Origin: Dehalococcoidia bacterium
GTDB taxonomy: Bacteria; Chloroflexota; Dehalococcoidia; UBA2979
Direction of reading: 5' to 3'
NCBI GenBank assembly: GCA_963667465.2
Contig: CAXXDN010000002.1
Coordinates: forward strand, 1,248,001 to 1,312,000
DNA length: 64,000 bases
The position numbers and the translations under genes are program-made. This document shows positions 23,972 to 25,871 of the stretch, piece by piece; positions within the stretch are counted from its first letter, which is position 1; each line of letters starts with the position of its first letter. The notes under the pieces were generated by a model. The model saw only the letters and a program-made list of their open reading frames with translations, did not search any database and was not told the origin of the DNA.

Positions 23972-24056
23972 GGACGAGCCTGCGCTGCGCGCGGCTCGCA
24001 CCCACCCACCCGCCCCGGATTGTGTTCTCTGTGGGGGCTGCGCCCCCACACCCCCC
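23972..24056 (+). repeat. REP-like modular repeat (modules A and B), left copy
   Basis: Imperfect inverted match to 25758-25850 (GGACGAGC..GCGCTGCGCGCGGCTC..CCCACCCACC and GTGGGGGCTGCGCCCCC). Confidence 0.75.
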
Positions 24057-24129
24057 GCTCCGGCATCGCCTCACAGTTCCACCTCCGGCCCCCTCTCCTG
24101 GGGGAGAGACACCCCAGGGTGCTAAGGCG

Positions 24130-25353
24130 TCAAGCGGCGAGCTGTTCGCGGTCGTGGCGGTGCGCCCAGGCGGTGGCCTCGTCGTAGGGGCGACGTGCCT
24201 TCAGGCAGCCGTGGAGGTAGCCGACGAGGCGGTTGCCGAGAGCGCGCAGCGCCTGGTGGTGGAGGTCGCCCGCGGCGCGGCGGCGGTGGTAGAAGTCATG
24301 GCAGCCGGGGCTCGCCTGCAGCGAGCAGAGCGCCCAGCGGTCCACGGCGTCGGCGAGCCGGCGGTTGCGCACGAAGCGGGCGCGCACGCTGCGCTTGCGG
24401 CCCGATGCTACGGTGAGCGGCGAGGTGCCGGCGTAGTTCCTGCGGGACTTCGCCGACTCGTAGCGTTCGGGGTCGTCCCCGAACTCGCCGAGCACCCGGG
24501 CGCCGAGCACGACACCGAGACCGGGCAGGGAACGGTAGATTGCGGCGTCCGGGTGCTGCTCAAAATGGCTCGTGAGCGCGGCCTCGAGCTCCGTAAGCTG
24601 ACGGTTGATCTCGCTGATCTGCGCGACCGCCGCGCGGGTGCTCGCGGCGAACGCCCGGCTCACGGCAGGCGGCGCCTCGAGTTGCGGGGAGCGCAGCGCG
24701 TCGCGCACCGCGGCGGCGCGCCGCTCGAGGTTGCGCTGACGTCCGCCGCGGCGCAGCGCCGAGCGGATCTTCGACGTGCTCAGGCGCGCCGCCTCGCGCG
24801 GCTCGCTCGCCCGCGCCAGCACGCCCAGGGCGTCGCCGTGCGCGAGGCTGGGGAAGGCCTGCAGGGCAGCCGGGAAATACTCCCTGAGGGCGTTGCGCAG
24901 CCGGTTGGTCTGGCGCACGCGGTCCCAGATCAGCTGCTGGTGGGCGCGGGCGAGGATGCGCACCGCGGCAGCCTCGTCGCTGTCGCCGGCCAGCGGACGG
25001 TGGTTGTGGCGGTCGGTGCGCACGAGGTCGGCGAGCAGCTTCGCGTCGGCGGCGTCGGACTTGGCGCCGCCCAGGTGGTGACGCTCACGGTAGCGCGCCG
25101 CCGAGCGGGGGTTGATCGCGTAGACGCGGTAGCCGGCCGCGAGCAGGGCCGTGACCCAGGGTCCGCGGTCGGTCTCGATGCCGACCACGACCGCGCCCGG
25201 GTCTGAGGCGTGCTCGGCAACCAGTTCGTGCAGCACGGCGACGCCCGCGACGCCCTCGGGCAGCCGCCTGGCGGCGAGCCGTTCGCCGGCCTCGTTCATG
25301 AGCTGGACATCGTGGTGGTCTTCGGACCAGTCGTCACCGACGTAGAGGGTCAT
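24130..25353 (-). CDS. IS110-family (DEDD) transposase / bridge recombinase
   Basis: YVGDDWS, GIE, KSDAADA RuvC-like residues; SLPGLG...GEFGD..RY, AGTSP..ASG C-terminal domain. Confidence 0.95.
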   Translation of the reverse strand: MTLYVGDDWSEDHHDVQLMNEAGERLAARRLPEGVAGVAVLHELVAEHASDPGAVVVGIETDRGPWVTALLAAGYRVYAINPRSAARYRERHHLGGAKSDAADAKLLADLVRTDRHNHRPLAGDSDEAAAVRILARAHQQLIWDRVRQTNRLRNALREYFPAALQAFPSLAHGDALGVLARASEPREAARLSTSKIRSALRRGGRQRNLERRAAAVRDALRSPQLEAPPAVSRAFAASTRAAVAQISEINRQLTELEAALTSHFEQHPDAAIYRSLPGLGVVLGARVLGEFGDDPERYESAKSRRNYAGTSPLTVASGRKRSVRARFVRNRRLADAVDRWALCSLQASPGCHDFYHRRRAAGDLHHQALRALGNRLVGYLHGCLKARRPYDEATAWAHRHDREQLAA

Positions 25354-25389
25354 CGTGCCTCGCTTTCCTGCGCTTCGTGCTGCTGTTTG

Positions 25390-25590
25390 CGACCTGCCGG
25401 GCTGGTCCTGCGACGGCCTAATGGACCAGTGCTCTCGGGCACGACACCCCAGGAGTGCTGTGGACCACCCGGACGCACCAGCCGGGGCACGGTCTCTCCC
25501 TGGAGATCGCAGTGTCTCGGGGAGGGGCAGTGCTCACCGGCCGGCCGGTCCAAGACCAGTCTCCCAGATCGCTCCAGGGTCCGGTCGAAC
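25390..25590 (-). ncRNA. Predicted IS110 bridge RNA (target- and donor-binding loops); ends approximate
   Basis: Guides CCCCUCCC and GGGAGAG match the target; CCUGGGGUGUC and CCAUUAG match the donor junction; each pair flanks an internal hairpin. Confidence 0.85.
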
Positions 25591-25757
25591 CCCATTAGGG
25601 AGGGGGTGAGGGGGCTCGCCGGACCCTCGAGGTTGCGCGGGGGTCACGAACGCACTCGGGCTGCCGCGCCGCCCTTGCGCCATCGAGTTCGAGGGGTTCC
25701 GCAAGAGACGCACATCCGCCTTCCGGACAGCCCGTTGCACTCCCCGTGGGAGCAGGG

Positions 25758-25850
25758 CCCCACAGAAACAACCGAGGGCAGGTGGGTGGGCTGGAGCCGC
25801 GCGCAGCGCGTGCTCGTCCCGGATGGGGGCGTGGGGGGCGCAGCCCCCAC
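25758..25850 (-). repeat. REP-like modular repeat, right inverted copy with modules in swapped order
   Basis: Reverse-complement match to 23972-24056. Confidence 0.75.
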
Positions 25851-25871
25851 AAGACAGTGTGGGCAGCCTCG

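Follow-up and report, generated by a model that had tools for sequence, protein, structure and literature searches.

An IS110-group insertion sequence from a Dehalococcoidia bacterium with a predicted two-loop bridge RNA matching the palindromic repeat in which it sits

The window analysed here is a stretch of 64,000 nucleotides from a Dehalococcoidia bacterium of the phylum Chloroflexota (GenBank assembly GCA_963667465.2, contig CAXXDN010000002.1, positions 1,248,001 to 1,312,000), and our subject is an insertion sequence of the IS110 family that occupies positions 24107-25598 of it. The element, its internal features and its target are read on the minus strand, in the orientation of the recombinase gene, and coordinates are those of the window unless a contig of the host genome (C1 or C2) is named. 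The element measures 1492 bp, including the dinucleotide CT (the core) present at both ends (25597-25598 at the left junction, 24107-24108 at the right one), and its sole long reading frame (24130-25353) encodes an intact recombinase of 407 amino acids. The non-coding left end is 243 nt long and the right end ~21 nt; we therefore assigned the element to the IS110 group and not to the IS1111 group, as the former is distinguished by a left non-coding end much longer than the right one and by the lack of long subterminal inverted repeats (Durrant 2024, PMC11208160).

The host genome (2.97 Mb in 2 contigs, 70.7% G+C) contains 10 full-length copies of the element, 9 of them 100% identical over 1492 bp and one 99.93% identical, with a single base changed at position 124, which falls in the linker joining the loops described below and lies outside the guides. 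One further copy is truncated by a contig end. The ends are the same in all 10 full copies and the flanks diverge immediately beyond them; CT is found at both ends in 10/10 copies, otherwise with no target duplication, as in other members of the IS110 group. The right CT was read from the sequence and the comparison of copies, and the left CT is the sole sequence common to both junctions and to the empty copies of the target. Since there are 10 full copies, 9 of them identical throughout and all at CT, the element is, as judged from its sequence, a complete and recently active IS110-group insertion sequence. Its intactness agrees with a preliminary description made from the letters of the stretch, which had proposed an intact programmable recombinase from a high-GC host. 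The public sequencing runs that contain the stretch include sponge metagenomes and coded organisms.

The recombinase matches both domains of the family above their curated cut-offs, DEDD_Tnp_IS110 (PF01548; 6.9e-38, 130.3 bits, cut-off 29) and Transposase_20 (PF02371; 7.1e-11, 42.8 bits, cut-off 21.3), as well as the NCBIfam model NF033542, "IS110 family RNA-guided transposase" (185.8 bits, cut-off 140). A search with the single sequence against solved structures gave no match, and a profile of five orthologues matched the IS621 transposase chain 8wt6_A across both domains (1.6e-10). In this alignment D8, E60, D100, D103 and S317-G318 fall on D13, E62, D104, D107 and S243-G244 of the chain; these would be the published IS621 catalytic residues D11, E60, D102, D105, S241 and G242 (Hiraizumi 2024, PMC11208158) if, as we infer, the chain numbering is offset by 2 residues. 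The DEDD and Ser-Gly residues are invariant in 5/5 orthologues, and together with the domain matches they bear out the IS110 identity given in the preliminary description. An exact-sequence cluster look-up placed the protein alone in its cluster, with no name. Opposite a conserved coding stretch of the gene (PGLGVVLGARVLGEFGDDPERYESAK), at 24448-24529 of the plus strand, the Rfam family Ms_AS-4 (RF02464, "Actinobacteria sRNA") gives a match of 65.1 bits (gathering score 50, E = 3.4e-09). This match probably reflects coding conservation with mycobacterial IS110 transposases, which are ~68% identical, and not a separate sRNA gene, although an antisense RNA might still be made there.

The left end contains the parts of a predicted bridge RNA of ~190-200 nt, in which a 5' stem-loop is followed first by the target-binding loop and then by the donor-binding loop. 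The 5' stem-loop (25555-25585) has an outer helix ACCGG/CUGGU and an inner helix CUGGA-GCGA-UCUGG. The target-binding loop and its basal stem span 25477-25545. Within the closing stem GCAC (25533-25530)/GUGC (25490-25487) lie the left target guide (LTG), CCCCUCC plus the C of the core (CCCCUCCC, 25527-25520), a hairpin (25518-25503) made of GAGA (25518-25515), an 8-nt loop and UCUC (25506-25503), and the right target guide (RTG), GGGAG plus AG (GGGAGAG, 25500-25494), followed by AC (25493-25492) as candidate handshake bases. The donor-binding loop and its basal stem (25397-25472) follow the same plan: the closing stem UGGUCC (25467-25462)/GGACCA (25408-25403) surrounds the left donor guide (LDG), CCUGGGGUGU plus C (CCUGGGGUGUC, 25453-25443), a hairpin of GUGC, a 6-nt loop and GCAC (25442-25429), and the right donor guide (RDG), CCAUU plus AG (CCAUUAG, 25424-25418), with GC (25417-25416) as candidate handshake bases. 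All guide, hairpin and stem motifs named in the preliminary description were found where it had placed them, on a minus-strand reading.

Its strand logic was also correct, left guides having the sense of the top strand and right guides being the reverse complement of the core plus the right arm, in agreement with the scheme published for the group (Durrant 2024, PMC11208160). In this copy LTG and LDG pair with the C of the core only, the next base being C in LTG and G in LDG where U would be needed. The 7-nt right-side matches had been described as longer than the right guides of IS621. Of these 7 nt, 5 belong to the guide and 2 (AG) pair with the core (4-5 plus 2 in relatives), and right guides of 5+2 nt are not unusual, because the published range is 4-7 nt, with 4 for the RTG of IS621 (Durrant 2024, PMC11208160). 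We took chance expectations from a first-order Markov model with the leader as its training sequence, a conservative choice; the expected number of occurrences in 243 nt is 0.022 for the LTG 8-mer, 0.098 for the RTG 7-mer, 3.5e-4 for the LDG 11-mer and 1.0e-3 for CCATTAG; given these low values, four guides in the right order are very unlikely to arise by chance. No covariance model recognized the leader: a scan of Rfam 15 at E up to 10 returned chance-level matches only, none of them named as a bridge RNA.

The element sits in a repetitive extragenic palindromic (REP)-like repeat. The left junction with the flanking DNA reads ...CCCCTCC|CT-AATGG... and the right junction ...CCTGGGGTGT-CT|CTCCC.... 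The left part of the repeat lies at 25599-25617, its last 7 nt (CCCCTCC, 25605-25599) being the left target; the right target CTCCC (24106-24102) and the remainder of the hairpin lie at 24082-24106, giving CTCTCC...GGAGAG once a single CT is restored. All 10 copies are inserted at CT inside such a palindrome, whose genome-wide consensus is ...CCCCCTCACCCCCGCC-CT-CTCCC(loop)GGGAGAGGGGGCCGG..., and the flank consensus gaCCCCCTCACCCCNCC is shared by 8/10 insertions and 40 empty sites. These are the 40 unoccupied copies of CCCCGCC-CT-CTCCC, the commonest REP variant of the genome, each with a single CT. They confirm the REP-like target put forward in the preliminary description. Contiguous matches to both flanks of our insertion were found at C1:680933-680989 and C1:772343-772395. 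The reconstructed empty site has 0 matches in the window at <=2 mismatches, the empty sites being found genome-wide instead. The pre-insertion sequence CCCCTCC-CT-CTCCC is reconstructed from paralogous empty REP copies and not observed at this locus. The palindrome also occurs in tandem arrays with a spacing of ~80-100 bp (for example at C2:917200-917400, minus strand, and C1:120721-120801), and its variants differ at left-target position 5 and in the loop. A separate inverted repeat of ~75-90 nt (80-88% identity; 23972-24063 and 25748-25851) stands on both sides of the REP-like site with its insertion; it probably represents a further family of short repeats in this genome, and it yields similar spurious reading frames on either side.

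Among the 10 insertions the right flank is CTCCC in 9 and AACCC in 1, and the left 7-mer is CCCCGCC in 5 copies, with CCCCTCC (the copy in the window), CCCCACC, CCCCCCC, CCCAACC and CGCCCCC once each. The genome has 504 N7-CT-CTCCC sites. We scored sites of this form for pairing with the guide CCCCUCC, counting wobbles, and found that occupancy drops as pairing drops: the element occupies 2 of 4 sites with 7/7 pairs, 6 of 50 with 6/7, 1 of 95 with 5/7 and 0 of 354 with 4 or fewer. The site in the window is the sole exact CCCCTCC site of the genome, and it is only there that the left target guide is matched 7/7 by identity. Because the repeat is palindromic, its opposite strand offers the sequence CGGCCCC-CT-CTCCC, which occurs at 41 empty sites, with 0 occupied by this element. 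Sites of this CGGCCCC type, which make 5/7 pairs with the guide CCCCUCC, are the ones used by relatives whose left guide is UGGCUCC (loci L042-L048 and L090).

If the target loop is a guide, it should change in relatives together with the DNA that flanks them; its failure to do so had been named in the preliminary description as a reason to abandon the proposal. Of 401 genomes searched within the host's class, 7 contain relatives, the host among them; scanning genome contigs gave 140 confirmed relatives, from which 80 loci were kept. They come from metagenome-assembled genomes labelled Dehalococcoidia, with 79-92% protein identity, and from Actinomycetota (~68%). We used the motifs CTAATGG and GGGTGTCT to place the ends. 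The two motifs occurred together in 55/80 loci, and these 55 loci, the 10 copies of the host genome and 4 from the genome G180 make up a data set of 69 insertions with 29 distinct leaders, 18 distinct sets of target-loop guides and 12 distinct right-target 5-mers. Five of the elements (L025, L032, L037 and L041 from G180, and L101) are ~1808-1814 bp long, with ~300 bp of extra sequence separating the stop codon from the conserved 30-nt right terminus. Loci L061-L066, and L030, L035 and L040 of the genome G350, have identical flanks for tens of bases (GTCTGCCCCGACCC | ... | TCGTGTACAGCCGC), which suggests that these copies sit inside a larger repeated unit and are not independent insertions.

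The right guide, read as the five bases before a conserved AG-ACYGNGCC, is the reverse complement of the right flank: GGGAG is found with CTCCC, CACGA with TCGTG, GUUGU with ACAAC, GCGGU with ACCGC, GUGGU with ACCAC, GGGUU with AACCC, AGGA with TCCT and AUGA with TCAT. Our parser of the target loop mis-registered the hairpin in L051, L079/80, L081-89 and L118 and failed on L093, L095, L100 and L102. The mis-parsed classes were read by eye, after which an offset-tolerant scan and a permutation test were applied. In this unbiased scan the best match to the reverse complement of CT plus the right target ended exactly at the AG before ACYGNGCC in 43/48 leader/target rows, and the best match to the left target plus CT began 8 nt past a GAGCNC anchor in 36/48. 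Cognate right targets matched at a mean of 4.44 of 5 positions vs 1.89 for non-cognate ones, and cognate left targets at 5.39 of 7 vs 3.68. With one representative for each of the 12 right-target classes, 0/100,000 permutations reached the observed total, on the left and on the right alike. Several apparent left-guide mismatches, read by eye, are rU-dG or rG-dT wobbles with the bottom strand (U opposite top-strand C, or G opposite top-strand A), as in CUGAUCC with CCGACCC, UUACUUC with TCACTTC and CCUCGCC with CCCCACC. Guides and flanks therefore covary on both sides, core included, over 12 target classes, as the preliminary description had predicted. Relatives with the same donor also insert at sites other than this REP, and the target loop of close relatives appears to have been rewritten to at least 12 different sites while the donor loop stayed fixed. 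It is on this apparent natural retargeting that the word programmable would rest here.

The fold of the predicted RNA was analysed on an alignment of leaders from 20 relatives. RNAalifold, applied to the 20 leaders, paired the left terminus CUAAUGG with RDG and part of LDG with itself, a mispairing expected because the guides are complementary to the ends of the element; the predicted start site lies after CUAAUGG. We replaced this model by the named structure, that is, the 5' stem-loop, the target-loop stem and hairpin, and the donor-loop stem and hairpin, and tested it on the alignment. Of its cells 90.9% are paired, against 30-49% when the partners are slid by 1-3 columns; both-side changes occur in 46 cells against 15.2 in shuffles (0/500 shuffles reach the observed value), and there are compensatory changes at 11 pairs. 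Helix 1 of the 5' stem-loop is 96% paired and helix 2 81%, and the basal stem of the target loop is 97.9% paired. The target-loop hairpin is 100% paired, with both-side changes at 3/4 pairs (GAGA/UCUC, GCGG/CCGC, GAGG/CCUC, GGAA/UUCC). In the donor loop the hairpin is invariant and the basal helix is 76.5% paired, a figure lowered in part by the alignment register. The relatives thus preserve the layout of the preliminary description, a 5' stem-loop followed by the target loop and then by the donor loop in the left end, which is that of a bridge RNA.

The donor guides match the element's own ends in all 18 parsed distinct classes: LDG matches the right end plus the C of the core over 9-12 contiguous nt in 18/18, and RDG (CCAUUAG) agrees with CT-AATGG, read as its reverse complement, at 7 nt in 16 of the 18 and at 6 nt in the other two. 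A second loop much more conserved than the first is described in a figure legend of Durrant 2024 (PMC11208160), and the near-constant donor found here agrees with it. In IS621 each right guide is followed by two bases that, once strands have been exchanged, pair with the other DNA (Hiraizumi 2024, PMC11208158). Here, RTG is followed by AC; donor positions 7 and 6 (T, G) are its complement in 45/48 rows and pair with it by a wobble in the other 3, and in most rows AC is not complementary to the cognate target. The first base after RDG pairs with target position 7 in 46/48 rows; it is C instead of G in L025 and L101, lineages whose targets end in G, and this switch may be a single evolutionary event. 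The GC after RDG is able to pair partly with the element's own donor, a kind of pairing that is reported to be inhibitory in IS621.

Taken together, it is highly probable, in our judgement, that this is a recently active IS110-group element whose 243-nt left end encodes a canonical two-loop bridge RNA targeting the REP-like hairpin. The matches between the leader and the ends could instead be DNA-level subterminal repeats bound by the recombinase, with no guide RNA: LDG repeats the right end directly and RDG repeats the left end in inverted orientation, just as protein-binding repeats would look, and no RNA was found among the listed public runs. Such repeats leave unexplained both the target loop, which tracks the host flanks over 12 target classes, and the compensatory changes in the stems, and the family has been shown by experiment to be RNA-guided (Durrant 2024, PMC11208160; Hiraizumi 2024, PMC11208158). 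We consider this alternative very improbable.

Assuming that the element encodes a bridge RNA, a transposition cycle can be drawn by analogy with the work on IS621, of which only the sequence relationships come from our data. The element would be excised as a circle joining ...GGGGTGT-CT-AATGG..., bringing the conserved TTGAC of the right end to 18 nt before TCT|AAT and so creating a promoter for the bridge RNA and the recombinase gene. The donor loop would then pair with the circle junction and the target loop with the REP-like palindrome, and the DEDD/Ser recombinase would exchange strands at the CT core, inserting the element with no target duplication beyond the shared CT. For IS621, a -35 box in the right end and a model of a junction promoter have been reported (Durrant 2024, PMC11208160). 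The candidate -35 box here (TTGACG, 24128-24133) overlaps the stop codon of the recombinase and lies 18 nt before the terminal TCT. Among 27 distinct right-end tails (60 elements), 24 have TTGAC and the other 3 TTGC, always 17-19 nt before the terminal TCT and even in the two lineages with the 300-bp insertion after the gene. A circular form would join TCT (24109-24107) to AAT (25596-25594), generating TCTAAT as a candidate -10 box; a scan of the linear copy for sigma-70-like sites found 0. A promoter at the circle junction is proposed by analogy with IS621.

It might also be that the bridge-RNA gene is carried by an element that is now silent or crippled in this host, whose copies persist and no longer move. 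The contigs contain no circle junction and the listed runs no RNA, the commonest REP variant does not fully match the left guide, and the candidate -10 box is weak, all of which would fit. We give this possibility very little weight, as 9 copies are identical over 1492 bp and the tenth is one base off outside the guides, the frame is intact with its catalytic residues, occupancy follows guide pairing, and contigs cannot reveal rare circles. Compositional chance in a 70.7% G+C genome rich in C and G runs has a negligible probability as the source of the guide-like matches, for although the target motifs are low-complexity C/G runs, the RTG 7-mer is expected 0.098 times and the single-sequence fold is not distinctive, the 11-mer LDG and the AT-rich CCATTAG have expectations of 3.5e-4 and 1.0e-3, and the guides keep the same place in the structure and, among relatives, vary along with the targets.

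Several results weigh against an active element directed by a bridge RNA. The minimum-free-energy fold of the leader alone, a check proposed in the preliminary description, is not better than those of shuffled sequences (z = -0.51), and the two loops do not come out cleanly in it; we dropped it as evidence, and for this reason the structural support is covariation and not the single-sequence fold. In 5/10 insertions (those at CCCCGCC) guide position 5 forms an rU-dC mismatch, and the insertion at AACCC has two core-adjacent mismatches on the right, so pairing must be permissive. In the comparison of relatives, 25/80 loci were dropped as an end motif was not found; the relatives are kin, and the permutation figures therefore overstate independence. 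Covariation of the donor is weak: the guide follows a CCT-to-CAT change of the right end between this genome and G362 but not in G350, and position -9 matches in some classes only. The constancy of the donor among the 55 loci is partly a selection effect, because ends were located by CTAATGG and GGGTGTCT. The candidate -10 box matches at 5/6 positions, lacks the usually conserved A at position 2 and fails the rule of the scan. None of the listed public runs containing the stretch is RNA, so the transcript, its start and its 3' end are predictions. The circle junction was not seen in the contigs of the four runs covering the element (X1, X2, X3, X5), contigs being unable to reveal rare circles. 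A joint in the run contigs that skips 1491 bases (24106 to 25598) was not counted as an excision allele; its sides are only 23-25 letters long and one letter off the expected empty site, and hence it is probably a paralogous REP copy.

A more tentative proposal, which we regard as possible but somewhat doubtful, is that the clade, with recombinases 79-92% identical and its donor loop frozen, is a natural retargeting series: only the target loop would have been rewritten, to at least a dozen sites, and two sister lineages would have split the strands of the REP-like repeat by their left guides (CCCCUCC here vs UGGCUCC in relatives), the guide of our element being tuned to a rare REP variant. 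The single exact site is occupied and the 44 one-mismatch sites are mostly empty; such tuning could act as a built-in brake on copy number. If true, the series would give in-vivo rules of mismatch and wobble tolerance for a bridge recombinase in very G+C-rich DNA.

The same genome holds a different IS110-family element of ~1.5 kb in 3 copies, all on the minus strand (C1:459436-460578, C2:26258-27400 and C1:223004-224146; NF033542, 215-217 bits). Two segments of its leader correspond to its ends, GAUGGGGACA to the right end and CGUAAGG to the reverse complement of CCTTAC at the left end; on account of these matches it probably encodes a separate bridge RNA, for which the donor differs and the target is a C run.

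By every sequence-level feature of an IS110-group bridge-RNA system, our element is a real but ordinary addition to a known class. It introduces no new principle, IS110 bridge RNAs having been described since 2024, with thousands of orthologues predicted that year (Durrant 2024, PMC11208160), and NCBI already naming the family "RNA-guided transposase". Its value is that of an evidently active orthologue whose guides are fully readable and whose genome has 70.7% G+C; it also lies in close relatives with one donor specificity and many target specificities, and in a within-genome gradient of occupancy that is a natural measurement of specificity. These features could be of use when bridge recombinases are selected or engineered for G+C-rich targets, and in work on target-loop evolution. 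Among the matches listed, literature on IS110 elements or bridge RNA showed no link with Chloroflexota, Dehalococcoidia or sponge symbionts, a weak hint that the clade may be undescribed, as the supplementary tables of Durrant 2024 could include it.

The closest described system is IS621 of Escherichia coli (PMC11208160, PMC11208158). Both elements have a recombinase with a DEDD RuvC-like domain and a Tnp domain with Ser-Gly, a long left end, a short right end and a CT core, and an RNA in the order 5' stem-loop, target loop, donor loop; in both, the left guides are directed to the bottom strand and the right guides to the top one, with the core included, the bases after the right guides fit the handshake scheme, the target is a repetitive palindrome and a -35 box lies in the right end. 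They differ in that the recombinases are very distant, only the five-sequence profile having reached IS621 (1.6e-10), and in size, with 407 amino acids here against a solved IS621 chain of 328 residues. RTG has 5 nt plus the core here and 4 in IS621, the left guides here pair with the C of the core only, the host has 70.7% G+C, and our element is known from sequence alone. ISPpu10 and ISPpu9 of Pseudomonas putida (10.64898/2026.03.19.712850, PMC12288879) are likewise IS110-family elements reported to insert in repeated intergenic palindromes; ISPpu10 is reported to have no 5' stem-loop and to need a hairpin in the target DNA plus pairing, whereas our element keeps the 5' stem-loop. The IS1111 group, with its seekRNA or 3'-end bridge RNA, shares the recombinase family and the principle of a two-part guide RNA, but its elements have their long non-coding end on the right and carry subterminal inverted repeats of 7-17 bp (Durrant 2024, PMC11208160), while here it is the left end that is long.

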